Positions 11,689-29,057 of a DNA stretch of 64,000 nucleotides are shown here, in pieces; position 1 is the stretch's first letter; each line of letters opens with the position of its first letter. The stretch spans positions 64,001 through 128,000 of IMG/VR virus record IMGVR_UViG_3300014913_000007; one strand, 5' to 3'. The translations under genes were made by a program, and so were the position numbers. The DNA comes from a virus. The notes beneath the pieces were generated by a model that did not search any database, was not told the origin of the DNA, and was given only the letters and a program-made list of their open reading frames with translations.

Positions 11689-11717
11689 TTGACTTTAATA
11701 TTTCAATGTACTATAGT
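11689..11717 (+). promoter_or_regulatory. sigma70-type promoter of tRNA array 1
   Basis: TTGACT-17 nt (ending TGTAC)-TATAGT. Confidence 0.8.
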
Positions 11718-11721
11718 AAAT

Positions 11722-11757
11722 ATGTTGCAGGTAATAAATATAGGGATACTCCTATAA
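11722..11757 (+). CDS. leaderless mini-ORF MLQVINIGILL overlapping a terminator
   Basis: ATG at the 5th nt after the -10 box; lies within hairpin 11727-11766. Confidence 0.45.
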   Translation: MLQVINIGILL

Positions 11758-11773
11758 TTAGCCTGCTTTTTTT
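11727..11773 (+). terminator. terminator/attenuator hairpin in array 1 leader
   Basis: GCAGGTAAT/ATTAGCCTGC stem with inner TATAGG/CCTATA, then T7. Confidence 0.75.
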
Positions 11774-11783
11774 ATGAGTTAAT

Positions 11784-11903
11784 ATGATGGAAAAGAAACT
11801 TCAAATACATACAAATATCAATTCTAATATTATGGTGCCGTTCATGGTACCCATGTTTATTGCCCCTGCGGGGCAAGTACAACCAGTGCCATTTTGGTGC
11901 TAA
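11784..11903 (+). CDS. leader peptide of tRNA array 1, MMEKKLQIHTNINSNIMVPFMVPMFIAPAGQVQPVPFWC
   Basis: manual translation; 26 of the last 29 residues are M/F/W/V/N/P/A/Q/I, the array 1 specificities. Confidence 0.8.
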   Translation: MMEKKLQIHTNINSNIMVPFMVPMFIAPAGQVQPVPFWC

Positions 11904-11950
11904 TAAATTATTAATCAAACAATTTAGTTCGGGTAGAAGAAAGCAAATTT

Positions 11951-12025
11951 GGCGGGAAGGACGTTGGCTTCCAGTAGTGTCTCATAAGCATTATTACGCT
12001 GGTTCAATTCCAGCTTCCGCAACCA
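11951..12025 (+). tRNA. tRNA-Met(CAT), initiator-like 1:72 mismatch
   Basis: cloverleaf; loop CTCATAA; G1:A72; CCA encoded. Confidence 0.8.
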
Positions 12026-12044
12026 TTTTATTAACTTAAATTCC

Positions 12045-12103
12045 TAGGATTACCATTTTCAGTGATTAGCTTGCAACACTTTGATCTTTAAGTGGTAGTC
12101 CTA
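12045..12103 (+). other. 14-bp stem-loop between tRNA genes
   Basis: TAGGATTACCATTT pairs with AAGTGGTAGTCCTA. Confidence 0.65.
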
Positions 12104-12110
12104 CTTTTCT

Positions 12111-12185
12111 GCTCCGGTAGCTTAACTGGTAAGAGCGTTCGGTTGAAGCCCGAAAGATGGAGATCGACACCTCTCTGGAGCACCA
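12111..12185 (+). tRNA. tRNA-Phe(GAA)
   Basis: TTCGG-TTGAAGC-CCGAA anticodon arm; CCA. Confidence 0.88.
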
Positions 12186-12186
12186 T

Positions 12187-12258
12187 ACACTTCTAGTCTT
12201 GGGACAAAGGAAGCCTCCAAAACTTCTAAGCAGAGTTCGAATCTTTGGGAGTGTGCCA
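12187..12258 (+). tRNA. tRNA-Trp(CCA), short D-arm
   Basis: loop CTCCAAA; GTTCGAAT T-loop; CCA. Confidence 0.8.
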
Positions 12259-12259
12259 T

Positions 12260-12333
12260 GCTAGATTAGTTTAATGGTAGAACAGGAGTTTTACATGCTC
12301 TTAGCGGTGGTTCGATTCCATCATCTAGTACCA
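12260..12333 (+). tRNA. tRNA-Val(TAC)
   Basis: loop TTTACAT; CCA. Confidence 0.9.
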
Positions 12334-12348
12334 TATTTTTATTTTTAT

Positions 12349-12420
12349 TCCGGTGTAACTCAGTGGTAGAGTGGTCGTCTGTTAAACGACTTGTCTGTAG
12401 TTCGATCCTACACACCGGAG
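12349..12420 (+). tRNA. tRNA-Asn(GTT)
   Basis: GTCGT-CTGTTAA-ACGAC; CCA not encoded. Confidence 0.9.
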
Positions 12421-12427
12421 CTTTTAT

Positions 12428-12503
12428 TGTATCTTAGCTTAATTGGCAAAGCGTGGAACTGTTAATTCCAAAGATTTAGGTTCGAACCCTAAAGATACAG
12501 CCA
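12428..12503 (+). tRNA. tRNA-Asn(GTT), second copy
   Basis: TGGAA-CTGTTAA-TTCCA; CCA. Confidence 0.9.
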
Positions 12504-12504
12504 T

Positions 12505-12582
12505 CTGGATGTAGCTCAGCCTGGTCAGAGTGCTCGTTTTGGATACGAGTTGTCGGGGATTCGAATTCCTCCATCCAGACCA
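12505..12582 (+). tRNA. tRNA-Pro(TGG)
   Basis: CTCGT-TTTGGAT-ACGAG; CCA. Confidence 0.9.
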
Positions 12583-12592
12583 TTTTTTTTAC

Positions 12593-12668
12593 CTGGCATT
12601 GGTGTTTAACAGTAGCATGGTGGCTTTGGGAGCCAGCGGAGAAAGTGCAAATCTTTCATGCCAGACCA
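12593..12668 (+). tRNA. tRNA-Pro(TGG), second divergent copy
   Basis: loop TTTGGGA; T-loop TGCAAAT; CCA. Confidence 0.82.
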
Positions 12669-12724
12669 CTTTTTTAGAACAGTCATTCTTTACATTAAAA
12701 GCTATATAATATATACTATACTTA

Positions 12725-13174
12725 ATGGATACCAAGTACTGTGATAAATGTAAGAACGACCTGCCAGTTGATACTTTCCAAAGACGTGGGAAAAACGGAT
12801 TACAGCCTTGGTGTAAGAACTGTCAAAAAGAGTATGATAGACAACGTTACATAGATAATAAAGAATACATCTGTAAGCAAAATAAAGACGGTAGAGAGCG
12901 TAGAAGAGAAAGAAGTAGAAACGAAGTAACAAGCTATCTATTAGAGCATCCTTGTGTTGATTGCGGTGAGAAAGATATAATAGTACTCAGCTTTGATCAT
13001 GTTAGAGGAGAAAAGGAATTTAACATATCAGATGCGATTAAGGATGGTATGAAGTGGGAGAGGATAGCGAAAGAAATAAAGAAGTGTAAAGTTAGATGCT
13101 TCAACTGTCACATGAGAAAGACTGCAAAACAGCAGGGCTGGTTCAAATACAACAAATCAAATAAGAAAAAATAA
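12725..13174 (+). CDS. HNH endonuclease inserted in tRNA array 1
   Basis: CxxC pairs; CVDCG...FDHVRG...CFNCH; own promoter TTTACA-17-TATACT at 12689-12717. Confidence 0.85.
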   Translation: MDTKYCDKCKNDLPVDTFQRRGKNGLQPWCKNCQKEYDRQRYIDNKEYICKQNKDGRERRRERSRNEVTSYLLEHPCVDCGEKDIIVLSFDHVRGEKEFNISDAIKDGMKWERIAKEIKKCKVRCFNCHMRKTAKQQGWFKYNKSNKKK

Positions 13175-13187
13175 CAAACAAAATTTA

Positions 13188-13261
13188 GGGGATATAGTTT
13201 AAATGGGAAACGCCAGCCTTGCAAGCTGAGGTTCTGGGTTCGATTCCCAGTTTCTCCACCA
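13188..13261 (+). tRNA. tRNA-Ala(TGC)
   Basis: loop CTTGCAA; G3:U70; CCA. Confidence 0.9.
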
Positions 13262-13269
13262 ATTTTTAA

Positions 13270-13344
13270 CCGGGGTTAGTGAAGCGGTTATCACCTCAGA
13301 CTTTGAATCTGAGATCGAGAGTTCGAATCTCTCACCCCGATCCA
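13270..13344 (+). tRNA. tRNA-Gln(TTG)
   Basis: TCAGA-CTTTGAA-TCTGA; CCA. Confidence 0.9.
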
Positions 13345-13345
13345 C

Positions 13346-13440
13346 TTTGGCCGATCCTGTACACCACTTATAAACTGACATATGTGACGGTAATCGCTAT
13401 TCATTTGGCGATCTTTTGGCCGATCTTTTGGCCGATCTTT
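13346..13440 (+). repeat. TTTGGCCGATC direct repeats (one isolated copy plus three tandem ~12-nt units)
   Basis: direct reading between tRNA-Gln and tRNA-Ile. Confidence 0.8.
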
Positions 13441-13442
13441 AC

Positions 13443-13518
13443 GGGGGAGTAACTCAGGGGTAAGAGTGCCAGTCTGATATACTGGTGGTCGAAGGTTCAA
13501 CTCCTTCCTCCCCTACCA
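13443..13518 (+). tRNA. tRNA-Ile(GAT)
   Basis: CCAGT-CTGATAT-ACTGG; CCA. Confidence 0.92.
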
Positions 13519-13525
13519 TTTTCAA

Positions 13526-13554
13526 TTGACTTACATTTATATGTAGGTTATACT
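13526..13554 (+). promoter_or_regulatory. sigma70-type promoter
   Basis: TTGACT-17-TATACT. Confidence 0.8.
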
Positions 13555-13560
13555 TAACTA

Positions 13561-13728
13561 GGAAACACCAGTTAGAAGTTACTAGAAGCTTGGTGGTGTA
13601 CTTCTCTGGCATAGATCTATAGTAATTCTAGTTGAGCAAAATGTACGAAGCATTCACTATAGGTACCAGAGTTAGTGGTTTAGGGGGTGTTTAATGAGGC
13701 GAAGCCCTCCGACTGGTGTTTCTTTTTT
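13561..13728 (+). ncRNA. candidate ~165-nt rod-like ncRNA
   Basis: starts at the 7th nt after the -10 box; 5' GGAAACACCAGTT pairs with 3' GACTGGTGTTTCT, then a T-run; inner stems CTCTGG/CCAGAG and ATCTATAGT/ACTATAGGT. Confidence 0.7.
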
Positions 13729-13796
13729 CTTTCTTCAAGAAATCAAAAAGAAAAAAATAACAAAACAAAATTTAGGAATTATAATTTGATAGCTAT

Positions 13797-14348
13797 TTAG
13801 GTAAGAATACTTAAATCGTTGACGAAACACGACCAATTTTTGGCTTTTTGATGATACCCTAAAGGTAATTTAATGGGTAATTCATAGTAAAAATCATTGG
13901 TTACCTTATCTTGGTTTGGGAAGAAATCCATTCCTGTTTGATCTTTACCTATAAAATAACTTCTAGCTTCCTTTAAGGATATAGCTTTATCAAACAACAC
14001 CCAAACATGGTACCTATCTGGTGCTCCGCTTTTTTCTATAAGTATATTACTATGTATCTGTTTAGCCCAGAAAAATGCTTTAACTAAGTACTCCTCTCTT
14101 ATATCATCTACATCAAAACATAGGAACTTAACTGTCTGTGTTGAAAGTTCAGTTGGAAAGACACCCAAGGTTATCTTCCCTGCTAGATGTTTCTCGATTA
14201 ATTCTTTAGTAAGTGGAGCATATACTCTTTCATAGTAGTTCTCCCTTAATCTCCCAGAAGCATCCCTCTGCCAAGGATGCGGAGTCATTAAACAATAGGC
14301 ATCTTTTCTATGACAAAAAGTGTTATATAAGAAATCTACTTTACTCAT
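13797..14348 (-). CDS. archaeo-eukaryotic primase (AEP/PrimPol) catalytic-domain protein
   Basis: HLAGKITLGVF, FLCFDVD (motif I), EKSG...YHVWVLF (motif II), IKLPLG. Confidence 0.78.
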   Translation of the reverse strand: MSKVDFLYNTFCHRKDAYCLMTPHPWQRDASGRLRENYYERVYAPLTKELIEKHLAGKITLGVFPTELSTQTVKFLCFDVDDIREEYLVKAFFWAKQIHSNILIEKSGAPDRYHVWVLFDKAISLKEARSYFIGKDQTGMDFFPNQDKVTNDFYYELPIKLPLGYHQKAKNWSCFVNDLSILT

Positions 14349-14658
14349 CTTCTATTTTATGTACACATCTAACACTATTCTCTGTATCTTCCTGTAAGGC
14401 AGTTCTATCCCCAATCATTAAGTCTCGATTTCCATTTATTACTCCTGTGGACAAAAGATATAGCCATTTATATCTTGTCAAATCTTCCACTTCTTTAGAG
14501 TATCTAACCACTGACTGCCAAGAAGTCCTAGGCCAGTCTGCTACCTTTGGAGCAAGTCCTAAAGTTTTTACTTGAACATTCACTACTTGTCCAACACTGT
14601 AGTCTTGAGTATCAGTAGTATAGTCTTCTGTTGCATATGTAACATAAATTGCTTTCAT
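14341..14658 (-). CDS. hypothetical protein
   Basis: 105-aa ORF coupled to neighbours. Confidence 0.55.
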   Translation of the reverse strand: MKAIYVTYATEDYTTDTQDYSVGQVVNVQVKTLGLAPKVADWPRTSWQSVVRYSKEVEDLTRYKWLYLLSTGVINGNRDLMIGDRTALQEDTENSVRCVHKIEDE

Positions 14659-14659
14659 G

Positions 14660-15671
14660 TTATATTCTCCATTTTATTAAGAAATTAAGTGCATAATCCG
14701 ATTTATTAAAAATATTTATCTGTGTAGTACTAGGTGGATCTGAGGTCTCCGTAGGAAAAGCAATCATAGTATTAAAACCCTTTTCATCCCATTGCCATCC
14801 TGCCCCACCTCGATAGATATTAACTACCTGCCCCGGTACTTGTCCAGTAATGCCATTATGAACTAGAGTATCAGGAAAGGTATAATTATAATTAGTTATC
14901 CCGCGCCATACTGCCTGAGTAACATTACGAACATTAAACTCATCCGGTGGTTCATGGAATTCAAAAATGTCGTTAGTTTGATGTGTTGCAGTTCCTGATA
15001 CCATCGTTGTATTTGCTTGCTTACTGTTGATATATGAAGTAATATAGCTCCAGGTATCTCTTGTTATATTATGAACTACAGCTCCTACAGGCAACTTACC
15101 TTGTATCACCGACCTAGTTAGGATACTTGTAAGACCTGTATTACCGTGGCTTAAACCAGTACCAACAATAAGTCCTAACTGATACCACACCTTCCCCTCA
15201 ACAACCATCTGAGTAGTTGAAGTACCAGCGGAGAGTGTTAAATCTAACTCCCCTTCATCAGCAAAATTTCTTTGTTGTATAACTTGAAAATCGGCAGTAT
15301 AAGCCGGAATCGATAGGTTGACAGTTTCCCATCTCTTACCCTCTACCACAACTATTGCCATATTATTATAAAATTTATTGTCTTCTATGTCAGTCTCAAG
15401 CATAGAGCTTGTTGAGGCCACCAATTCGTCTACATACAGTTTTAGTTGTGGCATCATTCTGCCCACTTGGAGTGGGTAAATTAATCAAAGATTGATTATT
15501 AAAATCCACTGGACTTTGTGGTTTATATAGGTACCAATCCTCTGCAGCTCCTCCAGAGGGTACAACTATTTCTGAATCAGAATACCTTCCAGCTACAGCT
15601 ATCAAGTCCTTCCCTACCTTAATTATACTTGATTCAGGTGTTACTTGTGGATCTACTTTATAATTTGACAT
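14660..15671 (-). pseudogene. frameshifted virion protein, MSNYKVDPQV family member 2 (track ORFs 15396-15671 plus 14660-15466)
   Basis: removing one A from ACT AAA A CTG TAT GTA GAC (plus-strand TTTT at 15440-15443) joins NDATTK to LYVDELVAS, matching EAATKLYVDQLIAS in paralog 24241-25794. Confidence 0.8.
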
Positions 15672-15825
15672 TTACCACTCTTCTATGCTAAATTTTTCTC
15701 TAGATATACTTATAATATAGTACACAAAGTTAACATTCAACTTTTTAGTTAAGTATCTACAATATTATACTTTGTCAACTATCTAAAACACACACGGACT
15801 TACAAGTCCTCTGTTTCTACTTTAT

Positions 15826-15859
15826 AAAAAAGGACCCGTAAGTGACTAATTACAGGTCC
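15826..15859 (-). terminator. intrinsic terminator overlapped by mini-ORF MLVVTALDL (15850-15879)
   Basis: GGACCTGTAA/TTACGGGTCC stem followed by T6 on the minus strand. Confidence 0.7.
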
Positions 15860-15930
15860 AAAGCCGTCACGACTAACATGTACGCATTGTACTACTTGAT
15901 ATATAGTACTTTTAATAGTATACTACAAAT

Positions 15931-16452
15931 ATGTTTAATTTCATAGAGATATTATTTATAATGTTATCAACAACCTACCAGGTTCCTGAAATCTTTGATT
16001 GCCATATAAATAAATATCAGATATTAAAACTCAGTAACGAAGTCACCTTTGATGTAAGTAACTTCCTAAAGTATGATAGATATGTACTCAAATCGTCTCA
16101 AATTCACTCTATAGACCCCGATTTAATCAGATCAATCATCATAGTGGAATCTAAATATAATCCAGCTGTAGGCTCTCACAGAGGGGCTAGCGGGTTGATG
16201 CAGCTCATGCCACTTACTGCCAAGTATTTAAACGTAACAGACAGGAAAGATCCTGAGCAATCAATTGAAGGTGGTACTAAGTATTTGAGGGAACTATTCA
16301 CCAGATTTGGTAATCTAGACCTTACCCTAGCAGCGTACAACGCAGGTCCTACAATAGTAGGAAAGTACAATAAGATTCCTCCAATTAAAGAAACTGGCAT
16401 ATATGTTAGGAAAGTCAAGTACTTATATAAACAATTATCTAAAAACAACTAA
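15931..16452 (+). CDS. lytic transglycosylase (SLT domain)
   Basis: IIVES, GASGLMQLMP, LAAYNAG motifs. Confidence 0.93.
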   Translation: MFNFIEILFIMLSTTYQVPEIFDCHINKYQILKLSNEVTFDVSNFLKYDRYVLKSSQIHSIDPDLIRSIIIVESKYNPAVGSHRGASGLMQLMPLTAKYLNVTDRKDPEQSIEGGTKYLRELFTRFGNLDLTLAAYNAGPTIVGKYNKIPPIKETGIYVRKVKYLYKQLSKNN

Positions 16453-16527
16453 TAACAATCTCTGAAAATGTACTATCTTATAATGTAGTATACTTGTATA
16501 AAAATATTTTTAAAGAGGTAATATATA

Positions 16528-16800
16528 ATGGCATTATTATTTGATGGAGTAGCAACGGATTTCGCAGCTGATGAAGCTAGTTTCGTAGAGGTTGCACATA
16601 ATATTGGACAATGTCCTGATAGCATTCAATTTTTAGGAGTTGAAGGTGAGGTAGAAGGTTTTCCTACACTACTAGATGGTGAAGGTGATGAAATTCCTGG
16701 CCCATACCTAACACAAACAAGAGATCCTAATGTAGTTAGAGTTCACAAACCTAACGCTTATACGTTCGCAGGTAAGTTTATTGTTCGTATTTACGGATAA
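16528..16800 (+). CDS. hypothetical, probably virion-associated protein
   Basis: GAGG RBS, upstream TGTACTAT motif, downstream terminator. Confidence 0.7.
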   Translation: MALLFDGVATDFAADEASFVEVAHNIGQCPDSIQFLGVEGEVEGFPTLLDGEGDEIPGPYLTQTRDPNVVRVHKPNAYTFAGKFIVRIYG

Positions 16801-16812
16801 TTTATAATCTCT

Positions 16813-16848
16813 ATAGCCTGGTTAATTAACTTTAACTGGGCTATTTTT
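16813..16848 (+). terminator. intrinsic terminator
   Basis: ATAGCCTGGTTAA/TTAACTGGGCTAT stem followed by a T-run. Confidence 0.75.
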
Positions 16849-16851
16849 ACG

Positions 16852-17214
16852 TCATAAATCTATAAGTCTCAGCTCTCTATTCCTATAATAGATTTTAGCA
16901 GTACCTTCAACGAAGTCTTTTAATGTTCTTGAAAAGATAGTACACCCATAACAGTCTGCCAACCTGTCTTCGTAATCCACTAGAGCTAAGAAATTGTTAA
17001 CTCCTCCTAAGCTTTCCTCTGAAAACCCAAACTTTATTAAGTCTTTTCTTTCTAAAGATCTTCTATCTATATGTGCTCCATTATAGAATTCAGTACGTAG
17101 TATAGCTTTATACTTAGCACCTTCCTTAGTTTCCTTTATCCAAAAAGAATTACCAAAGAGCAGAATCTCTATGAATTTATCTCTAGTTACTCTTCTTATC
17201 TTATATCTACTCAT
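16852..17214 (-). CDS. hypothetical protein
   Basis: 120-aa ORF coupled to upstream gene. Confidence 0.6.
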   Translation of the reverse strand: MSRYKIRRVTRDKFIEILLFGNSFWIKETKEGAKYKAILRTEFYNGAHIDRRSLERKDLIKFGFSEESLGGVNNFLALVDYEDRLADCYGCTIFSRTLKDFVEGTAKIYYRNRELRLIDL

Positions 17215-17770
17215 CTCTTAAAAGTTCCTGTCTGAAAAGTACCCAACGATGGTTAAGTTCTACTTTACCTCTATTAACCTCATCTAAATAGTCTATACAG
17301 TCAACTACATTGTCAAACATGAACTTAGGATCTATAATTCCAAATAACCAAGAGGATGCTTTTGTTTTACCCCCTTTCACGATAACTAGTACAGGCTTCT
17401 TCTGCTGATCTGCAAGTATTAGTTCATGGTACGTTCCACACATATGAATGCTAGTATCTACCATAACTATTAAGAAGTCAGAGATATCTACTTGTCTCAA
17501 ATCCGAGCGTACAATTTTTCTCATTAATCTTCTAAGTTTTGTCCAGCTTCTGTTCTTCTTTAATGTTCGAATAGCTTCCTGCTCCTCTCCTACGTCAGGT
17601 GTAAGAGCTTCTAACTTATGAGTTGGGTCTAGGAATTTGATACCTATACCTCGTTTCTTAGTTTCTTCTATAATTTCTTGTCTATAAGACACTCCATAAT
17701 CCTCAGACATATCAATAGGTCCCGCTAAATATGCCACAGATTTATCTAATATGTTGACCTTTTTACTCAT
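17207..17770 (-). CDS. nucleoside 2-deoxyribosyltransferase-like protein
   Basis: YLAGPID...DLRQVDISD...GTYHEL pattern. Confidence 0.78.
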   Translation of the reverse strand: MSKKVNILDKSVAYLAGPIDMSEDYGVSYRQEIIEETKKRGIGIKFLDPTHKLEALTPDVGEEQEAIRTLKKNRSWTKLRRLMRKIVRSDLRQVDISDFLIVMVDTSIHMCGTYHELILADQQKKPVLVIVKGGKTKASSWLFGIIDPKFMFDNVVDCIDYLDEVNRGKVELNHRWVLFRQELLRDE

Positions 17771-18741
17771 TAGTTTTCTCCATGTTTAGTATATAAATGT
17801 AAATATATTCTAGATATCTGATCTAGAAAAATTTCAAAGGTATGATCCTTTTTCATCATATTACAAGTTTTGCAAGCTGGTACACAGTTATCTAAGTAAT
17901 AACCCTTAGTATTGTCTAGTCTATCTATACTATTCCTAAATAGTCCTTTTCCTGACCTGAGCTTAGTTTGCGGAGAGTTTCCACAGTAATAACACTTTGA
18001 AGAGGCTATGGTTTTGAACTCCTCCAAAGTTAGATCAAAAGTAGTATTGTTAAAAAGCTTGTTACGTCTTCTATAGTTTGAAGCTATATACGCTCTAAAT
18101 TCTGACTCCCAAGCTTTAGCCTTAGTAGAAGGTCTCAAACTTTGTGAACACCTTGAACACTTTTTAATTAGTCCCTGCCTAAGATTGCAACCTATATATG
18201 CCTGCTCATTACCACATGTACACCTACACATCCACTTAAGTTCACGTTTTCCACTTTTAAATACATGATCCTCAACATTATACAAGACTACCAAATCTCC
18301 AAACACTTTTCCAGATAGATCAATAACAGATTTATACCTAATTACTTTAGAAAGGTTATCACAAGTCTCGCAGTAGGTACTACTACTTCTTCTAGAGGCT
18401 TTTCCATTGTAAGTCTTCAAAGTATCAATTGATATTTCCTTTTCTAGACCACAACTGCATTTACATAGATACCAAGATCGTCTTGTCTTTGTTGTCGAAC
18501 TTCTAGTTCTCTCTAAAACTGTCCAATTGTAGAAAGATTTCCCTATTAATTTTAACCTCTGTTCTTCGTGTTTACACTTTACACATTGTGTACTCATGCC
18601 TCTCGATAAAGCTGATCCTAGGACTGTGCTTTCTGTACCACAACTACATTTACATGTCCAATAAAGGTTTCCACTGGCGCTCTTATCCCTGGCTTTACTA
18701 ACTACCGTCCATTTACCTATTATTTGTCCAGTTTCAATCAT
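17770..18741 (-). CDS. HNH homing endonuclease with repeated N-terminal Zn modules
   Basis: three (W/Y)xCxCxCG repeats; CYYCG...IDRLDNTKGY..NCVPACKTCNMMK. Confidence 0.85.
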   Translation of the reverse strand: MIETGQIIGKWTVVSKARDKSASGNLYWTCKCSCGTESTVLGSALSRGMSTQCVKCKHEEQRLKLIGKSFYNWTVLERTRSSTTKTRRSWYLCKCSCGLEKEISIDTLKTYNGKASRRSSSTYCETCDNLSKVIRYKSVIDLSGKVFGDLVVLYNVEDHVFKSGKRELKWMCRCTCGNEQAYIGCNLRQGLIKKCSRCSQSLRPSTKAKAWESEFRAYIASNYRRRNKLFNNTTFDLTLEEFKTIASSKCYYCGNSPQTKLRSGKGLFRNSIDRLDNTKGYYLDNCVPACKTCNMMKKDHTFEIFLDQISRIYLHLYTKHGEN

Positions 18742-18835
18742 TTGTCTAAAATATTCGGATTCTTACTCATATTAAATCCTGTTATTAAGTAAAAATTCTA
18801 TACCTATTATAACATTATAAGTACAAAGCTGCAAC

Positions 18836-22060: not shown

Positions 22061-22066
22061 CTTTTT

Positions 22067-23110
22067 TTAATCCTCTACTAGTACCTTAGATTGTATATAC
22101 TCTTTAACATACTTAAAAGGAATATCTAAGTCTTCGCTTATCTCCTCATAAGAAAGTCCTTCATCTATAAGCATAGTAGAAACTTCTGTTCCGTGTGCCT
22201 CCACTAAAGGTCTGAAGACTTGTTTAGCTTTTATTAACTCTTTCTTTGAGTTCCAATATCTAACAGACTTAAATAATTTCTTAGCTTTAGTATCTTCTGG
22301 AAAAATAGATGATTCAAGATCTACTTCTGGATATAGAATTTCTGCAAACTTAATCATGTCTACTGTCATAACTCTTACCCTACATACAGTAGATTGCTTC
22401 GTACTAGTATTTTCTAGGATGGTATTATATATTCCTAAATCCTTTAGTACTTCTGAAAACTGAGTGACAAATTTAATAGTAGGTCCACTCATGGATAGAA
22501 ATCCAGGTTCAGGTTCTGTTAAATTCTTACAGAAACCTCCATGTCTTTCAAAATACCCTCTCAAGTAATGTGGTAGTAGTTTCTTTGGCATTAAAGGTGG
22601 GAAGTCTAACATGTTTACATTTCTACTACCATAGTGCCACTTATTAAGTGCTTCTCTTATTCCTTGTTGGCTTATAGTAAGAAAAAATTTACCATATTCA
22701 CGTCCATTTACTGTTTGAGTACGGTAACTAAATTTATTATCTATCTTTAAACATTTTTTTAACTTTACTAAGTACTCTTTATCTTTTATAGAAGAAGTTA
22801 TTATCATACTTTCTGAAGTACTAGTCTTAAGGATCGATCCTGCCCAAGCTAGGTAACCTAATACGTAAGCTAAGTCCTTATTATCAATTTTCTTAAACTT
22901 ATCTAAGTCTATTTTCTTATACTTTCTTGTATTAATCATTCCAAGATCATAGCATTCCTTAAAGGATCTAAACTTCATATTATATTTTTCAAATAGCTTT
23001 TCTACTCTGTAAGTTGTAATAGAATATTTTTTTGCTATAGCTTTTTTACTTTTAAGCTCAATTAAGTAACTGGTCTCTAGTTGTTTTTTAGTTGGTAATT
23101 TAGTAAGCAT
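22067..23110 (-). CDS. LAGLIDADG-type endonuclease-like protein with terminal HTH domains (motifs degenerate)
   Basis: AYVLGYLAWAGS and HYLRGYFERHGG motifs lacking the usual DG. Confidence 0.72.
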   Translation of the reverse strand: MLTKLPTKKQLETSYLIELKSKKAIAKKYSITTYRVEKLFEKYNMKFRSFKECYDLGMINTRKYKKIDLDKFKKIDNKDLAYVLGYLAWAGSILKTSTSESMIITSSIKDKEYLVKLKKCLKIDNKFSYRTQTVNGREYGKFFLTISQQGIREALNKWHYGSRNVNMLDFPPLMPKKLLPHYLRGYFERHGGFCKNLTEPEPGFLSMSGPTIKFVTQFSEVLKDLGIYNTILENTSTKQSTVCRVRVMTVDMIKFAEILYPEVDLESSIFPEDTKAKKLFKSVRYWNSKKELIKAKQVFRPLVEAHGTEVSTMLIDEGLSYEEISEDLDIPFKYVKEYIQSKVLVED

Positions 23111-23180
23111 CTATCAGTCTCCTTAAAAAATTCACTATAAGTAGCAGCTTACCAATATACAATAGTTTTGTCAATAGTAC

Positions 23181-23209
23181 TTGCTATCTAAATAAAAATC
23201 CTATATAAT
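23181..23209 (+). promoter_or_regulatory. sigma70-type promoter
   Basis: TTGCTA-17-TATAAT. Confidence 0.7.
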
Positions 23210-23212
23210 ATG

Positions 23213-23381
23213 CCTAGGGAGTGCCGACTCACAGTAGAGGAAACACTCGTAACGACAAAAAAATAAAGATGCTACTGTCTCTTAACTACTGGGTTTAATG
23301 GTTCGTTTATGTGCTCTGTACGTAACATCACCACCGATGGCTGTAGGTGTAAGCTCAACCTAGGAACGGGCCAGCTTTTTT
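23213..23381 (+). ncRNA. candidate structured ncRNA or 5' leader (~165 nt)
   Basis: GC-richer non-coding tract after promoter; CCTAGGGAG pairs with CTC-AA-CCTAGG; ACAGTAG/CTACTGT; ends in a T-run. Confidence 0.55.
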
Positions 23382-23399
23382 ATTATACAAGTAACTAAA

Positions 23400-23738
23400 A
23401 TGAAGAAAATAAAACCTAAAGACTATTCAAAGTTAAAGCCTGGTAAAACATACCTATTTGCAAGTATACACTTCAAAGAAAAAGAAGTAAGTCTGCAAGG
23501 GAAAAAAGTTAAAACCTGGGAAATAGTAGAAGTAACTCCCAGAGAAGGTAAATTACTATCAATAACCACTAAAAGAATAGAGATACTAAAGAAAGGCAAA
23601 CCTACAGGAAAGTTCGCTCTGGTTGGGGATGTATTAATCTTTGAACCAAGAAATAACTGCATAGTATTAATGGGAAGTAAAGTAAAAGTCTTCAAAACAG
23701 TAATAGGCTGTAATAATTTTAAAATATATAAGAAGTAA
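23400..23738 (+). CDS. basic hypothetical protein
   Basis: 112-aa Lys-rich ORF. Confidence 0.55.
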   Translation: MKKIKPKDYSKLKPGKTYLFASIHFKEKEVSLQGKKVKTWEIVEVTPREGKLLSITTKRIEILKKGKPTGKFALVGDVLIFEPRNNCIVLMGSKVKVFKTVIGCNNFKIYKK

Positions 23739-23744
23739 TTAAAT

Positions 23745-23951
23745 ATGGATCCAGTAATACTAATATTAATACTTATCTTATTTACGTCTGTGACTATAAA
23801 TTTGGTGCTTACATGTAGGTTATTAAGGTCTGAACTAACTTTAAGAAGAAAATCTAAAAGATTAGAAGCAGTTATGAAAGAAAATGAACGCTACTTCTAC
23901 GAACAGTTCGATAAATATGTTGATAACAAGTCAAATGAGGATTTTCATTAA
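23745..23951 (+). CDS. small membrane protein
   Basis: N-terminal TM helix followed by coiled coil. Confidence 0.55.
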   Translation: MDPVILILILILFTSVTINLVLTCRLLRSELTLRRKSKRLEAVMKENERYFYEQFDKYVDNKSNEDFH

Positions 23952-24145
23952 TCTGCTGGCCTATCTACTAAAATCCAGACACATCTACTGAATATATTTA
24001 AAGTAACTTCATCCTTCAATTCATGATCGTCTGGTGAGATGGTCTTATCATACCCTAAACATTTGAGATATTTATTCTCTACCCTGGCTAATTGTCTTAA
24101 CTTTTCAAAAGAGAGTTTCATTTCGTCTCTGTCCTTTTCCAGCAT
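23948..24145 (-). CDS. hypothetical protein
   Basis: 65-aa ORF with AAGGA RBS. Confidence 0.5.
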   Translation of the reverse strand: MLEKDRDEMKLSFEKLRQLARVENKYLKCLGYDKTISPDDHELKDEVTLNIFSRCVWILVDRPAD

Positions 24146-24240
24146 TGTATGTCCTTATGTATTTATAAGTTATTATTAATATTAGTTTAACATATATTTA
24201 ATACTAAGTCAAATACGTATTTTATGCTATTTCTTGACTT

Positions 24241-25794
24241 TTAAGCAATTATTCCTGAGGCTGTTACCCAATTACTACCACTATACCAAATTGGTAATCC
24301 TAAAGTAGTATCAAAGTAGAGTTCTCCTAATAGAGGTAATCCAGGTCTTTCCCCTGTGATACCTGCACTAGGTGTAACTAGAACGTCTAAGGCATCTTTT
24401 ACTGTAGATCCTGATACTGTAGAATCATTAATAGTAATAGAAGCAAAACTCTCTATAAAAGTATCATTTAAAGAAGTGGTATTACTATCATCTAAAGTAT
24501 ACCCATTCTCAATTAAGTAATCTACGGTATTATTATAACAAACATTTTTCTTTAAGTTACATACAGAACCATTCTCAAGTCTTATACCTCTATTACAGTT
24601 ATAACAAGTATTACCGATTATCGCTGCCATTCCATTAGCACTGCCACCGTCTAAAGATATACCCTCACCCGAACACTCAGAAACTAGGTTATCTTGGAGA
24701 ATACTAACACTAGTGACATCATCTATATCTATACCTTCAATGCAGCGTTTGACCCTATTTCTTCTAATTATTGCTGAGTTTCTGTAGCCAGAAATAGTTC
24801 CTAACTGATCTAACTTTATCCCTTCGCCTCCATTACCATCATCACAATTATTAATGTAACAATCTTCTACTAGCATGTTAATTGAATTCTGTAAATGAAG
24901 ACCTCTGCCCAGACTTGCAGAATCAATAAAACAATTCTTTATAAACGCAGAGTTAGAACCTCTTAAACAGATAGCTGCTCCTTCTATCTTATCTGTAGTG
25001 GCCTTATGTAAGTGACAGTCAATAATGGAGATATTACTACTCATTTCAGATATAGAAGGTGCAGTTGCATAATCTGATCCATTATAGTAGGCTAATAGTA
25101 TTGCACTGCCCTGGGCATTTCTTATAGTAATATTGTGAAATATTAAATCATTAGCTTTAGAATGATTGTCTTTAAATGTTATTGCGGAGCCTTTACCATT
25201 CTGGTAGGAGGTAGTGCAATCTTCTAGTATTAAGCTACTCAGTAAGATATCAGCTGCCCCATCTTCTACTTGAATACATTGCTGACCTGTAATAACTGGA
25301 AAATATCCATCTGTTACCTTTACTTTAAATTCTACTCCTGAGGGTATAGTAATTGGACTATAAGTAGCACTTGTCCTAACTTCAAGTACTTGGTCATCAG
25401 TAAGCGAGTTAATTGCCAAATTTAAATCATTTGATCCAGTAGTGGTTAAGATAACGTCTGGTATCTCAAATCTTAGTTCCTCAATGTCTTGTAAAATACT
25501 TGAGTATTCTCCAGCCTCTACTGAAGCTATTAACTGATCTACATATAACTTAGTTGCAGCTTCAGAGTCTGTGGTGGGGTTTGGTAATTGACTAAGTATT
25601 TGATTATTAAAGTCTACAGCATCCTGAGGAGGATATTTGTACCACTCATCTGCTGCAGCTCCAGAACTTGTAGCTCCAGAACTTGTAACTGCCTCTGAAT
25701 CTCGGTATCTACCTCCAACAGCTAATAGTTCCTCTCCTCGCTGAATTACTCTAGATTCAGGTGTTACTTGTGGATCTACTTTATAATTTGACAT
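24241..25794 (-). CDS. right-handed beta-helix (tailspike/depolymerase-like) protein, MSNYKVDPQV family member 3
   Basis: parallel beta-helix repeats (GIxL...IxxNxxxNC); C-terminal GELYFDTTLGLPIWYSGSNWV. Confidence 0.8.
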   Translation of the reverse strand: MSNYKVDPQVTPESRVIQRGEELLAVGGRYRDSEAVTSSGATSSGAAADEWYKYPPQDAVDFNNQILSQLPNPTTDSEAATKLYVDQLIASVEAGEYSSILQDIEELRFEIPDVILTTTGSNDLNLAINSLTDDQVLEVRTSATYSPITIPSGVEFKVKVTDGYFPVITGQQCIQVEDGAADILLSSLILEDCTTSYQNGKGSAITFKDNHSKANDLIFHNITIRNAQGSAILLAYYNGSDYATAPSISEMSSNISIIDCHLHKATTDKIEGAAICLRGSNSAFIKNCFIDSASLGRGLHLQNSINMLVEDCYINNCDDGNGGEGIKLDQLGTISGYRNSAIIRRNRVKRCIEGIDIDDVTSVSILQDNLVSECSGEGISLDGGSANGMAAIIGNTCYNCNRGIRLENGSVCNLKKNVCYNNTVDYLIENGYTLDDSNTTSLNDTFIESFASITINDSTVSGSTVKDALDVLVTPSAGITGERPGLPLLGELYFDTTLGLPIWYSGSNWVTASGIIA

Positions 25795-25864
25795 AATTAT
25801 TATTATTCCCTCATATTAAAATTTCTTTTAATATTCTATAGTACATTACCAAGTTAAATATTTC

Positions 25865-25893
25865 TTGACATACGTTAATATCTGTACTATAGT
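25865..25893 (+). promoter_or_regulatory. sigma70-type promoter of tRNA array 3
   Basis: TTGACA-17 nt (ending TGTAC)-TATAGT. Confidence 0.85.
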
Positions 25894-25899
25894 ACATTT

Positions 25900-25983
25900 A
25901 TGATGTTATCTATTTGTAACATATCTTTTGACTTTGCCGTATTCAACGGTACAGGAATCACCTCGGGAACTGGCACACATTAA
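25900..25983 (+). CDS. leaderless leader peptide of tRNA array 3, MMLSICNISFDFAVFNGTGITSGTGTH
   Basis: ATG at predicted +1; 8 of the last 11 residues are G/T; array encodes Gly and Thr. Confidence 0.8.
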   Translation: MMLSICNISFDFAVFNGTGITSGTGTH

Positions 25984-26050
25984 GTGTAAACTGTCAGGAT
26001 CCATCTAACAAATAAGTTTAAAATTTAATCTGGATACTGGCGGTACTAAT

Positions 26051-26410
26051 ATGATCGTATTTGGAGTTTGTTACATGAGTAGATCACGTAGAAAAAAACC
26101 TATCATCAGACACGGTGGTAGTGATAAGTGGTGGAGAAGGAACTACAATCGTAAACTAAGAAGAGCTAATAAGGTACTCTTACAGAAACAGAAGGAAGAT
26201 TTCCTACCTAAATTAGTTAGAGAAGTTAGTAATGTTTGGGATAGTAGTAGAGATTGTACTTTTAGATTTACTTATCTAAAGGATGGTAACTTATGTCATC
26301 TAAGTAACGTTGGATTCTGGGCTGATTTTTATGGAGTATCTATAGAAGAGTATATAGAGAAAGAAAAGAAAGAAGCTAAGGAGGAATACAACAAATGGAT
26401 GAGGAAGTAG
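26051..26410 (+). CDS. basic hypothetical protein inside tRNA operon 3 (likely start MSRSRRKKP at 26075)
   Basis: GGAG RBS precedes the second ATG; Arg/Lys-rich. Confidence 0.7.
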   Translation: MIVFGVCYMSRSRRKKPIIRHGGSDKWWRRNYNRKLRRANKVLLQKQKEDFLPKLVREVSNVWDSSRDCTFRFTYLKDGNLCHLSNVGFWADFYGVSIEEYIEKEKKEAKEEYNKWMRK

Positions 26411-26556
26411 AGTACAAGAAAACTAACAGGGAGAAGGTACAGACTCCTAAGTTAGGTATATTCTATTGCACATGTGATAGAGCTTTAGTAGGAAAGGGGA
26501 GGAAGTGTAAGTTTTGCGGGACTAGAGATCCTGGTAAAACATTTAAAAAATAATAT

Positions 26557-26629
26557 CCTGGAATGAGGTTAATGGTTAGCCTGTCTGACTTCCAATCAGA
26601 ATGCGTCAGTTCGAATCTGGCTTCCAGGA
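26557..26629 (+). tRNA. tRNA-Gly(TCC), atypical acceptor
   Basis: TCTGA-CTTCCAA-TCAGA; GTCAG-TTCGAAT-CTGGC T arm. Confidence 0.8.
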
Positions 26630-26634
26630 CTCCT

Positions 26635-26707
26635 GCTCGAATAGTATAAGTGGGCAATACACTGGTTTTGTAATCCAGAATTTTCGGATCGTGGCCGAAT
26701 TCGAGCT
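26635..26707 (+). tRNA. tRNA-Thr(TGT)
   Basis: loop TTTGTAA; acceptor GCTCGAA/TTCGAGC; atypical T-loop. Confidence 0.78.
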
Positions 26708-26748
26708 AATTATTTGACATTACTTAGTATTTATAATATAATAGTTAA

Positions 26749-27117
26749 ATGTCCAAACTTAAAGTCTGTAAACAATGTGGAAAAACTTTCCCCAAATCAG
26801 GTATGTACTTAGGTAAGTGAAGGAACTTCTGTAATAGGAGTTACTTTCTTTTATGCTCCTCAACTAGGTTGGCCAGACAGTATTTACTGGAGAAACATGG
26901 AAACAAGTGTTTTCAATGTGAAGTAACCGGATGGAATGGACGGCCAGGACCTGTAGTTTTAGATCATATAAATGGAAACCCTTATGATCATAGTTTAGAA
27001 AATATTAGATTGCTCTGTTGTAATTGTGATGCACAAACTAATACATATAAAAACAAAAATAAAGGTAAAGGCAGGCACACTAGGAGATTACGATACAAAC
27101 AAGGTAAAAGCTACTAA
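26749..27117 (+). pseudogene. HNH endonuclease with in-frame TGA at 26818-26820
   Basis: ATG 26749 follows TTGACA-17-TATAAT and is in frame with track ORF 26869-27117: MSKLKVCKQCGK...GK*RNFC...LDHINGN...NIRLLCCNCD. Confidence 0.75.
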
Positions 27118-27148
27118 TAGCTAACTCAACTCTCAGCTTCAGCTCCAT

Positions 27149-27454
27149 TTATTTTGGTAATAAAGTCTCAACGAGTACATGATAATCTCCGAATATAATA
27201 CATGTACCATAGTCATTAATAGAAAACTGACCAAAATTAGGTGATATACCTTCCACACTCTCCTTAAAATAACTAAAGGGTACTTCAAGCAAGGAACTAT
27301 TTCCCATACATAATACAACCTCTTCAGTGTTTACATCTATAAACCCACTTATTACATGCTTCTCTGGGTTATCTTTCTTTAATACTTTAGTTATATTATT
27401 AGGATCTAATTTTGCTCTTCTACTAATCATATGTTCCTCACTCAATGTATTCAT
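27149..27454 (-). CDS. hypothetical protein (possibly DUF2442-like)
   Basis: C-terminal FSINDYGTCIIFGD resembles DUF2442. Confidence 0.5.
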   Translation of the reverse strand: MNTLSEEHMISRRAKLDPNNITKVLKKDNPEKHVISGFIDVNTEEVVLCMGNSSLLEVPFSYFKESVEGISPNFGQFSINDYGTCIIFGDYHVLVETLLPK

Positions 27455-27537
27455 TAGTTATTACAAAATAAGCTAGTAATATATTAATACATAATTTAAA
27501 GATAAATGTCAAGTTACCATGTATTATATGTACCATA

Positions 27538-27918
27538 GTGTACTATAATATAAGTATGGATATATTCCAATTAATCAAACAATGCTTAGAAACAGCTGAG
27601 GATACACCACATTTAAGCGTACTGGACGATTACATGCTATCTTATACCCTGGACCCAGATGATGAAGATCTAGCCACAGCGAGAGAATATGACCTTGATC
27701 GAGTAACTTATAAAGGATTAATAGAAGGTGAACAAATATTTATAGGACCAGATAGACAACCTATAGCACTTAAAGAGTCTGAATATAAAAAGAAATGGGT
27801 GATGATTTCAACTACTAAATTAAAAGGACAAATATTACTTGCTGAATATGAAAAGCTAATCCAGCAAGTTTATAATCAGTTACCTGAAGCTTTGAAAGAT
27901 AAAGTCTTTATTAAATAA
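27538..27918 (+). CDS. hypothetical protein (likely start ATG 27555)
   Basis: ORF following TGTACTATAAT motif. Confidence 0.6.
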   Translation: MYYNISMDIFQLIKQCLETAEDTPHLSVLDDYMLSYTLDPDDEDLATAREYDLDRVTYKGLIEGEQIFIGPDRQPIALKESEYKKKWVMISTTKLKGQILLAEYEKLIQQVYNQLPEALKDKVFIK

Positions 27919-27920
27919 TA

Positions 27921-28250
27921 CTAAAAAGCAAAGCATTCAAAATAAAATGCTGAATCAGATGGGGAGGAACTTATTCTTCTAGTACCTACTCTAATAGTAT
28001 TAATATCTGAACTATTAGTTAATTCTCTCCAACCAGTTACAGAACCATTGGAACTTTGCTGCTGATCTTCAAAAGATCTAAACTGTGTTTCAGGATCATT
28101 TCCTACATTACCCGTGAACATTCTTATAAGTTGCACTCTTTTACCAAAATTATGATTAAAATAATATTGAATTTCCGAAGTAGAGGTACTCCTGGTTAAT
28201 ACCTCAGATTGATAATGTAAAACATTACTTTCATTTGTTAATCTAATCAT
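27921..28250 (-). CDS. hypothetical, possibly virion-associated protein
   Basis: GAGG RBS; YYFNHNFG similar to VAHNIG of 16528-16800. Confidence 0.55.
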   Translation of the reverse strand: MIRLTNESNVLHYQSEVLTRSTSTSEIQYYFNHNFGKRVQLIRMFTGNVGNDPETQFRSFEDQQQSSNGSVTGWRELTNSSDINTIRVGTRRISSSPSDSAFYFECFAF

Positions 28251-28321
28251 AATATAATTCCTCGTATTTATTATCTATTCTTTATATATATAGTATAGAA
28301 GTAATATTTTTAATATAATAT

Positions 28322-28350
28322 TTGACATTAATTTTTATTTGTACTATGAT
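28322..28350 (+). promoter_or_regulatory. sigma70-type promoter of tRNA array 4
   Basis: TTGACA-17 nt (ending TGTAC)-TATGAT. Confidence 0.85.
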
Positions 28351-28359
28351 CTATTTGTT

Positions 28360-28446
28360 ATGTTAATATCAACTCTAAAACATATACTATTCGATATAAA
28401 GCGGTTCCATAACCGCCATAAAAGACGCTTTGCGTCTACAATATAA
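28360..28446 (+). CDS. leader peptide of tRNA array 4, MLISTLKHILFDIKRFHNRHKRRFASTI
   Basis: 13 of residues 7-23 are K/H/D/R/I and all four Ile codons are ATA; array encodes Asp, Arg x2, His, Lys and an Ile2-like tRNA. Confidence 0.8.
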   Translation: MLISTLKHILFDIKRFHNRHKRRFASTI

Positions 28447-28494
28447 TCAAACAAACAATTCAATTAGGGTAGAAGTAATTAAGTAAATAAATTT

Positions 28495-28563
28495 GGCTGT
28501 ATAGGTTAATGGTAGACTAGGAGACTGTCGATCTCTTTGCCGGGTTCGATTCCCGTACAGCCG
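28495..28563 (+). tRNA. tRNA-Asp(GTC)
   Basis: GGAGA-CTGTCGA-TCTCT; G73. Confidence 0.82.
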
Positions 28564-28570
28564 TTCTTTT

Positions 28571-28642
28571 AGGGAGATAGCTCAATGGTTGGAGCACTCG
28601 GCTCGTATCCGAATGGTTACGGGTTCAAGTCCGGCCTCCCTA
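28571..28642 (+). tRNA. degenerate tRNA with CGT anticodon on an Ile-type body (probably former tRNA-Ile2 CAT)
   Basis: loop CTCGTAT; A1-U72 and A73; mismatches in acceptor and T stems. Confidence 0.55.
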
Positions 28643-28680
28643 CTTTTTAAAGTAAACTATTCTTTACATTATACCAACTT

Positions 28681-28733
28681 AATGTATAGAATACTAGACA
28701 TTATCTGCTATACTGTCTAAGATTCTATACATT
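28681..28733. repeat. inverted repeat / hairpin inside array 4
   Basis: AATGTATAGAAT/ATTCTATACATT with inner TAGACA/TGTCTA. Confidence 0.75.
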
Positions 28734-28743
28734 ATAGCATTTT

Positions 28744-28817
28744 GCTGCAGTAGTCTAACTGGATAGGCATCTCGCTTCTAACGAGACAATATGAAGGTTC
28801 GAGTCCTTCCTGCAGTG
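28744..28817 (+). tRNA. tRNA-Arg(TCT)
   Basis: TCTCG-CTTCTAA-CGAGA. Confidence 0.9.
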
Positions 28818-28825
28818 CTTTATAT

Positions 28826-28899
28826 GGTGACCATAACTTAACTGGTTAAAGTGCCTGACTGTGAATCAGGTGATTCGGGTTCAAATCCCGATGGTCACA
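28826..28899 (+). tRNA. tRNA-His(GTG)
   Basis: CCTGA-CTGTGAA-TCAGG; G-1 present. Confidence 0.9.
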
Positions 28900-28905
28900 C
28901 CCTTT

Positions 28906-28981
28906 GCCCTGGTAGTATAATCAGATAAAACACTCAGCTACGAACTGAGAGATGAAGGTGCAAGTCCTTCCTAGGGTGCCA
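28906..28981 (+). tRNA. tRNA-Arg(ACG)
   Basis: CTCAG-CTACGAA-CTGAG; CCA. Confidence 0.88.
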
Positions 28982-28986
28982 ATTAT

Positions 28987-29057
28987 TCCCTCTTAATGTA
29001 ACGGTAGCATACCTGGCTTTTAACCAGTTTGTGGGAGTTCAAATCTCTCAGGGGGAA
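28987..29057 (+). tRNA. tRNA-Lys(TTT)
   Basis: loop CTTTTAA; acceptor TCCCTCT/AGGGGGA. Confidence 0.85.

Follow-up and report, generated by a model that had tools for sequence, protein, structure and literature searches.

The DNA examined here is a window of 64,000 nucleotides (nt), the whole stretch that was analysed, corresponding to positions 64001–128000 of the virus record IMGVR_UViG_3300014913_000007 (a single virus record of 153,389 bp and 34% G+C). The record comes from a sediment metagenome and represents an uncultured phage that encodes a family-A DNA polymerase, a DnaB-like helicase and a primase; CheckV estimates the completeness of the phage genome at 78%. ARAGORN finds 23 tRNAs in the genome, all of them in four plus strand arrays inside window positions 11951–29058, amid genes that lie mostly on the minus strand. 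Each array is headed by the same type of promoter and by a short open reading frame (ORF), here termed the leader, whose composition matches the tRNA content of its own array. We describe these leaders and argue that they probably serve as ribosome-read sensors of tRNA supply.

The first array (array 1, 11951–13518) comprises genes for tRNA-Met(cat), Phe, Trp(cca), Val, Asn, Asn, Pro and Pro, the second tRNA-Pro scoring under the Rfam cut-off, followed after an HNH endonuclease gene (12725–13174) that divides the array by Ala, Gln and Ile(gat). Array 2 (21554–22061) encodes Leu(taa), Leu(caa), Leu(tag), Cys, Tyr and Glu, array 3 (26557–26707) encodes Gly(tcc) and Thr(tgt), and array 4 (28494–29058) encodes Asp, a tRNA with the anticodon CGT (28570–28643), Arg(tct), His, Arg(acg) and Lys. 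Together the four arrays cover 19 amino acids, with Ser alone missing. An earlier note on this DNA, made from the letters alone, had proposed that the arrays split the amino acids essentially without overlap; Thr, judged by the anticodon CGT, falls in two arrays, and the array 4 tRNA that had been described as ‘Ile2-like’ has this anticodon rather than CAT. In array 3, two small plus strand genes intervene between leader and tRNAs, one for a 111-residue basic protein (26075–26410) and one for a 52-residue CxxC...CxxC protein (26395–26553), neither of which has a family match in Pfam or PHROGs.

The pattern TTGACW-N12-TGTACTAT has four exact matches in the whole genome, all on the plus strand and each heading one tRNA array, at 11689–11717, 21354–21382, 25865–25893 and 28322–28350 for arrays 1 to 4, respectively. 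Read as sigma-70 promoters, the four sites have TTGACW, a 17-bp spacer and either TATAGT or TATGAT, and agree with the consensus at 10–11 of 12 positions; that of array 1 has TTGACT, a spacer ending in TGTAC and TATAGT, and the −10 element of array 4 is TATGAT. In array 3 the sequence TGTACTATAGTACA (25883–25896) forms a perfect 14-nt palindrome over the −10 element, most of which the other promoters keep, and which arises from the conserved GTAC directly upstream of that element. From its sequence, the palindrome suggests an operator, possibly for a dimeric regulator. A separate sigma-70 promoter of perfect consensus (26714–26742; TTGACA, 17-bp spacer, TATAAT), which does not contain TGTAC, is found 7 nt past the last tRNA of array 3.

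The leaders are four ORFs of 26–39 codons that lie between these promoters and the tRNA genes and start 7–67 nt past the −10 element, so that the shared promoter with a short ORF before every array, as the earlier note had it, is confirmed. Leader 1 (11784–11903) has 39 codons, with its ATG 67 nt past the −10 element, and 30 of its 39 residues belong to the amino acid set of array 1 (M, F, W, V, N, P, A, Q, I). Leader 2 (21389–21469; 26 codons, ATG 7 nt past the −10 element) has 14 of 26 residues in its set; its codons 16–25 specify exclusively Tyr, Leu or Glu, and its one Cys matches tRNA-Cys. Leader 3 (25900–25983; 27 codons, ATG again at 7 nt) has 8 of 27 in-set residues, with Gly or Thr at eight of residues 17–26, and leader 4 (28360–28446; 28 codons from an ATG 9 nt past the −10 element) has 13 of 28 (D, T, R, H, K), 11 of residues 7–23 being K, H, D or R. 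An alternative TTG start would extend leader 4 to 35 codons and overlaps the −10 element. All four leaders are on the plus strand. Since the ATG lies only 7, 7 and 9 nt past the −10 hexamer in arrays 2, 3 and 4, respectively, the transcripts of these arrays are probably leaderless or nearly so, given start sites deduced from the promoter positions; this does not apply to the main leader of array 1.

To quantify the match we took as background the composition of the 512 ATG-initiated ORFs of 20–45 codons in the six frames of this genome. In the matrix of leader against array, enrichment reaches −log10 P values of 5.1, 2.8, 2.7 and 2.7 on the diagonal and does not exceed 0.38 off it, and the true pairing of leaders with arrays scores highest among all 24 permutations (13.3, with the next best at 8.3). 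Ranked among the 512 short ORFs for their own sets, the leaders come 1st, 1st, 3rd and 3rd, and no selection correction is needed because the ORFs were fixed by position. Every specificity of an array is present in its leader (9/9, 4/4, 2/2 and 5/5). The match is specific to the reading frame: pooled over nine leaders, which include those of the relatives described below, in-set residues make up 62% in frame, against 32% and 23% in the shifted frames. They are also displaced towards the 3' end (mean relative position 0.62 against 0.39 for the remainder; Mann-Whitney p = 2e-5), the bias occupying the 3' two-thirds of each ORF and the in-set run stopping 0–2 codons ahead of the stop codon. All nine leaders were found open in a genome of 34% G+C, one of them being truncated 5' where its contig stops. 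The observations that the 3' part of each leader is dominated by the amino acids of its own array and that every specificity is represented are upheld.

We next sought the leaders in related phages. Among 50,697 phage records, blastn with array 1 and tblastn with the polymerase returned no cultured relative, giving only tRNA-level matches or matches of at most 25% identity. An IMG/VR search with a 119-residue operon protein gave no matches; the IMG/VR matches to the reductase were at most 36% identical, with tRNAs at none of the five best loci scanned, and a polymerase profile found one IMG/VR relative at 39% identity, with no tRNAs in that record. DNA pattern scans for the promoter, the head of array 1 and the GGGTAGAAG motif (see below) produced only chance or coding matches. 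A polymerase search, in turn, led to a clade at 43–50% identity in which the replication genes are syntenic and the tRNA region is variable; four of its members (L140, L142, L223 and L224) have no tRNAs within the stretch fetched around the polymerase gene. An 81.6-kb Logan contig at approximately 50% polymerase identity (stretches L139, L141 and L271, hereafter the relative) contains three homologous array units, and further array 1 units were recovered from two more contigs, L270 being complete and L269 having a leader cut at the 5' end. Contigs of a marine-sediment run from a different study (X2) are approximately 93% identical to the phage of the window.

The units of the relative are an array 1 unit (Met, Trp, Phe, Ile, Val, Asn, His, Pro, Pro, Gln, Gln, Ala), an array 4-type unit (Asp, Ile(tat), an HNH gene, Arg, Arg, Lys, Lys) and a Gly/Thr operon, in which both of the small array 3 proteins are kept. 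Each is headed by TTGACA-N12-YGTAC-TATAGT and then by an ORF of 23–40 codons, the array 1 promoter being kept at L141:12087 and L270:2030. The promoter type is not limited to tRNA arrays, since the same arrangement (TTGACA-N12-TGTAC-TATAGT; L271:4103–4131, plus strand) heads a two-gene NAD-salvage operon of the relative that encodes a nucleotidyltransferase/Nudix fusion and a NAMPT-like protein. The clustering of codons for amino acids tied to the downstream genes is found in the relative as well: on the diagonal of its own matrix 29/40, 11/28 and 11/23 residues are in-set (P = 2.7e-4, 1.4e-5 and 3.8e-3), and the off-diagonal values are above 0.5. The homologue of leader 3 in L271 has 11 Gly or Thr in its 28 residues.

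Homologues of leader 1 are present in L141, L270 and L269. The four array 1 leaders share an MEK start and, in three cases, a PF-x-C end, and have otherwise diverged, with uninterrupted in-set runs of 14–29 residues in all four phages. Most mismatches pair two in-set residues, as do 11 of 16 between the leaders of L141 and L269, and many of these exchanges are chemically non-conservative. In X2, leader 1 has a 6-nt insertion after 11854 that keeps the frame, two substitutions that exchange one in-set residue for another (GCG to GTC, Ala to Val, at 11868–11870; GTG to GCG, Val to Ala, at 11886–11888) and a synonymous change from CCA to CCT. The conserved ends and the hydrophobic character of leader 1 are what might be expected of functional micropeptides unrelated to tRNA supply, but four peptides of unrelated chemistry each mirror their own array, and the homologues tolerate non-conservative exchanges provided that they stay within the set, so we give this explanation almost no credence.

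The composition of the leaders also changes with the content of the arrays, a check that had been suggested for related phages at the outset. In L141 and L270 a tRNA-His(gtg) (Rfam scores of 49.8 and 61.7 bits) occupies the array 1 slot that in the phage of the window and in L269 holds the second tRNA-Asn. The array 1 leaders of L141 and L270 have two His codons, against one in the phage of the window and none in the 5'-cut leader of L269. Array 4 shows the reciprocal arrangement: its leader has three His codons in the phage of the window, where the array includes tRNA-His, and one in L141, where it does not. The co-variation thus provides two independent contrasts, both in the predicted direction.

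RNA structures that might be influenced by the leaders differ between the arrays. A terminator-like hairpin followed by U7 (11727–11773, plus strand; GCAGG...CCTGC outer stem) lies upstream of leader 1. It has z-scores of −2.5 to −3.9 and is conserved in three phages, with an invariant outer stem and compensatory changes in 4 of 13 pairs; in X2 the changes G11744A and C11751T turn a G-C pair into A-U. Because of its upstream location this hairpin cannot be controlled by leader 1. It may be a 5'-end stabiliser, or an attenuator under a possible overlapping mini-ORF of 11 codons that begins at 11722; the frame of the mini-ORF is not conserved, stopping after 11 codons here and 18 in L270 and being fused in frame to the leader in L141. 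In array 2 a long hairpin with a U-tract (21480–21550, plus strand; ΔG −24.4 kcal/mol, z −3.8) ends 4 nt ahead of tRNA-Leu, and this 65-nt hairpin is the only terminator-like element positioned after a leader. The hairpin of array 3 (25990–26044, plus strand) begins 7 nt past the stop codon of leader 3, is not followed by a U-tract and excludes the GGAG of the next gene; its outer stem persists in L271 through compensatory changes, one from A-U to U-A and one from U-G to C-G, as read from the alignment. Leader 4 contains two plus strand hairpins (28401–28416 and 28423–28437) built from Lys, Arg and His codons. Both are kept in L141, the first through different sequence and the second at the nucleotide level; the second is coding here and has the stop codon inside its loop in the relative.

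A further conserved element is the GGGTAGAAG motif, found on the plus strand at 11931–11939 in array 1, with AATTYART just upstream and tRNA-Met 12 nt downstream, and at 28467–28475 in array 4, 18 nt ahead of tRNA-Asp. The extended form AATTYART-N(1–4)-GRGTAGAAG precedes the first tRNA by 12–70 nt in arrays 1 and 4, both here and in the relative, and is found nowhere else between genes in this genome; inspection by eye gave no pairing partner for GGGTAGAAG that is consistent between the two phages. Hairpins and nucleotide blocks conserved irrespective of coding, such as the second hairpin of leader 4 and this motif, are what would be expected if the leaders were untranslated structured RNA elements, for example processing or termination signals, with the ORFs and their composition as by-products. 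We regard this as very improbable, as at 34% G+C all nine leaders, including the 5'-cut one, are open, the enrichment is frame-specific, the insertion in X2 preserves the frame and the array match recurs across all four arrays and again in the diverged relative.

Codon usage bears on another possibility, namely that translation of the leaders serves some purpose besides sensing, for instance the supply of ribosomes or the shielding of the precursor's 5' terminus, and that the match to the arrays arose only from the low cost of codons read by tRNAs co-expressed nearby. Protection of 5' ends could come from the 5'-terminal AUGs and also from the 5' hairpin of array 1. Codon economy, however, would act on codons and not on amino acid identity, and it explains neither in-set runs of up to 29 residues, nor the rare Trp and Cys, nor the movement of His codons with tRNA-His. 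The leaders also include codons that are rare in the genome, with two instances of CGC (1% of Arg codons) here, three in the relative, and CCG and GCG as well. An excess of distinct codons is significant in some leaders only (P 0.0007 to 0.85), measured against the codon usage of this phage, which may not suit the relatives, and the rare G+C-rich codons also form the hairpins, making an effect of codon and an effect of structure inseparable. Taken together, we judge translation for a purpose other than sensing to be improbable.

The anatomy of the leaders, their statistics, their conservation and their co-variation with the arrays are direct observations. The array match, its frame-specificity, its persistence in the relative and the shift of His codons are as a ribosome-based sensor predicts, and as no RNA-only reading does. 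On the sequence evidence we therefore favour, as rather likely, a model in which each array is an operon under translation-coupled sensing of the supply of its cognate aminoacyl-tRNAs, such that slow decoding leads to more tRNA. A short translated sensor ORF would head each tRNA operon, and in arrays 2 and 3, and nearly so in array 4, which appear leaderless, a ribosome could load the moment the 5' AUG emerges. Beyond approximately ten neutral codons it would meet a run of codons for exactly those amino acids that the downstream tRNAs carry, and its speed through the run would report, module by module, the supply of charged tRNA, whether from host or phage. The position of the ribosome relative to the conserved RNA structures at or past the stop codon might then set how much transcription, or how much intact precursor, reaches the tRNA genes, the sign most likely being homeostatic. 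That the ORFs are translated and that ribosomes stall on them is inferred, as are the points at which transcription starts, the output step and its sign.

Several findings count against this sensing model. The tRNA-Met(cat) (11951–12025) and tRNA-Trp(cca) (12187–12258) genes of array 1 are weak calls, returned by ARAGORN at a relaxed threshold only and missed by Rfam, although the homologous slots hold well-scoring tRNAs in relatives. The His co-variation rests on just two independent contrasts. At the level of codons the match is loose: all synonymous codons of the four-codon boxes are used, and the leaders contain GGT, GGC and ACC, codons that need not be read by the encoded U34 tRNAs. Four ATA codons occur in leader 4 (two in the relative), and array 4 has no ATA-reading tRNA. 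It is plausible on sequence grounds that the CGT tRNA of array 4 formerly read ATA, since CGT is one base from CAT, ATA codons are present in leader 4 and the corresponding slot in the relative holds tRNA-Ile(tat); an alignment of these two tRNAs neither shows nor excludes homology, and X2 lacks the segment (28570–28743) that carries the CGT tRNA. The remaining objections concern the output step. Only array 2 has a hairpin and U-tract between leader and tRNAs, that of array 1 preceding the leader and arrays 3 and 4 having none. No Rho loading site was apparent from composition: across the leaders, C minus G stays between −0.03 and +0.04, and the best 78-nt windows rank at the 53rd to 83rd genome percentile, although composition alone cannot exclude Rho.

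A further difficulty comes from the folding of array 2. In the ribosome-free RNA the 3' arm of the terminator hairpin prefers to pair with leader nt 21401–21422, but when a ribosome is masked early, in the middle, late or at the stop codon, equilibrium folding gives a terminator probability of 0.8–1.0, and with a stalled ribosome masked it is still 0.8–0.9. The terminator is therefore predicted in every ribosome-bound state, and the equilibrium model contains no stall-dependent switch. This bears on the sign of the response. The same sensor could act in the opposite direction, with efficient leader translation needed for read-through, for example because the ribosome keeps RNA polymerase coupled or blocks a termination or decay factor. 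An array would in that case be boosted solely once its own tRNAs function, giving positive feedback or a competence checkpoint. It is in keeping with this that ribosome-free and ribosome-bound leaders of array 2 fold differently while stalled and finished ribosomes have the same effect, that leaderless starts would allow tight coupling, and that the composition evidence is compatible with either sign. Nevertheless, ribosome occupancy in the array 2 model promotes the terminator and not read-through, no Rho-type composition was found, and it is not obvious how positive feedback would help a phage under tRNA loss; we consider this inverted response unlikely. The attenuation proposed in the earlier note accordingly survives in part: the frame-specific match between leader and array, retained in the relative, stands, and the step from stalling to read-through does not have the support of a terminator after the leader in arrays 1, 3 and 4 or of the folding of array 2. 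The sensing half of the model is well supported, and its output half is tentative.

A wider version of this model is possible, but we hold it as tentative. The arrays might form a modular, ribosome-read counter-defence regulon, in which depletion of one class of tRNA by an anticodon nuclease or by starvation would activate only the array that replaces it, with the palindromic promoter (GTAC-TATA-GTAC), which in the relative also heads NAD-salvage genes, providing a common master control. The link between anticodon nucleases and the arrays is pure inference.

Leader-peptide transcription attenuators are familiar from enterobacteria, where thrL (Thr, Ile), ilvL (Ile, Leu, Val), trpL, hisL, pheL and leuL are examples, some of them multivalent. 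The phage leaders resemble the thrL and ilvL type in being short ORFs in a 5' leader with regulatory codons clustered towards the 3' end, in addressing more than one amino acid and in the proposed use of ribosome speed as a readout of charged tRNA. They differ in that they precede tRNA genes themselves and not genes for biosynthetic enzymes, in that one leader polls up to nine or ten amino acids, and in that four parallel modules split 19 amino acids, three of the four leaders appearing leaderless. Moreover, the hairpin and U-tract after the leader are confined to array 2 and the model yields no stall-dependent antiterminator; in three of the four arrays the structure is not that of a classical attenuator.

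Other systems share individual features. T-box riboswitches, which are untranslated and bind tRNA directly, set read-through in cis according to whether a specific tRNA is charged, and the sensing of tRNA charging in cis is what we propose here. The identification of the phage elements as T-boxes was rejected, as an Rfam scan of 11000–30000 with E values of up to 1 returned only tRNA matches and chance-level matches. Leader ORFs that control Rho-dependent termination are exemplified by tnaC and mgtL, tnaC sensing free tryptophan through its nascent peptide and not codon supply. Read-through set by leader translation without an intrinsic terminator would suit arrays 1, 3 and 4, but no C-rich, G-poor stretch spans or follows the phage leaders. 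In mycobacteria, leaderless polycysteine short ORFs are Cys-responsive attenuators that place several operons under one logic, a ‘ribulon’, stalled ribosomes blocking an mRNA structure (Canestrari et al., 10.1101/834739). The phage leaders are similar in their run of sensed codons, in their spread over several operons and, for arrays 2 to 4, in a sensor ORF that would probably open the transcript, and differ in polling many amino acids together.

The tRNA regions of T5, which among tRNA-rich phages has been studied best, likewise have many tRNA genes interspersed with small ORFs and homing endonuclease genes. The T5 small ORFs beside tRNAs showed no array-matched composition, and the Cys-rich T5.070 resembles a CxxC zinc-ribbon protein. 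A full-text literature search found no published account of leader peptides controlling phage tRNA genes, in agreement with the earlier note, which knew of no such case. From the sequence evidence, ribosome-read, module-wise control of phage tRNA arrays would be best filed as a variant of leader-peptide attenuation that we did not find published.

Some further features of these regions can be recorded. Homing endonuclease-type genes within or beside the arrays are, besides the HNH gene of array 1, a LAGLIDADG-like gene (22067–23110) and an HNH_3 gene (26869–27117); the relative is without the HNH gene that splits array 1 and has an HNH-like gene within its Asp/Arg/Lys array instead. A tandem 12-nt unit (GGCCGATCTTTT) is present in three to four copies at 13345–13442, between tRNA-Gln and tRNA-Ile. 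On the minus strand of L269 (14357–14434) there is a tRNA (50.9 bits in Rfam) with an oversized anticodon loop, to which ARAGORN assigns no anticodon, and an uncalled tRNA-like stretch lies at approximately 14530–14640. A Thg1-like gene, of the tRNA-His guanylyltransferase family, is located approximately 0.4–1 kb from array 1 (L139:19385–20224; L268:12866–13684) in the two relatives with tRNA-His in that array, and there is none in the genome analysed here. A small RF-1/GGQ-domain protein resembling ribosome-rescue peptidyl-tRNA hydrolases is encoded beside the reductase gene (window 8031–8408, minus strand); in the relative a gene for a protein of this kind (L271:12768–13166) is inside the Gly/Thr operon, between tRNA-Gly and tRNA-Thr. 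Directly upstream of the promoter of that operon is a partial bacterial class A RNase P RNA (L271:13986–14144, minus strand; RF00010, 89 bits, E = 1.3e-25) that is cut by the contig end, and the genome analysed here has no RF00010 match. Finally, a 183-residue protein encoded at window 13797–14348 (minus strand) matches the archaeo-eukaryotic primase domain of the TOTE conflict system (PF22548, E = 4.6e-21).

What phages gain from their tRNAs continues to be debated. Proposals in the literature include codon compensation and evasion of defences that cleave tRNA. Replacement of a degraded host pool is a further proposal, and to our knowledge almost nothing is known about the regulation of phage tRNA genes. 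If the sensing model is true, the phage would measure decoding capacity and adjust its tRNA supply module by module, and leader-peptide attenuation would extend from biosynthetic operons to tRNA genes. From the composition of leaders one could then predict, in uncultured phages, where operons begin and end and which tRNAs they encode, and the leaders themselves would be compact, programmable sensors for the supply of specific tRNAs.

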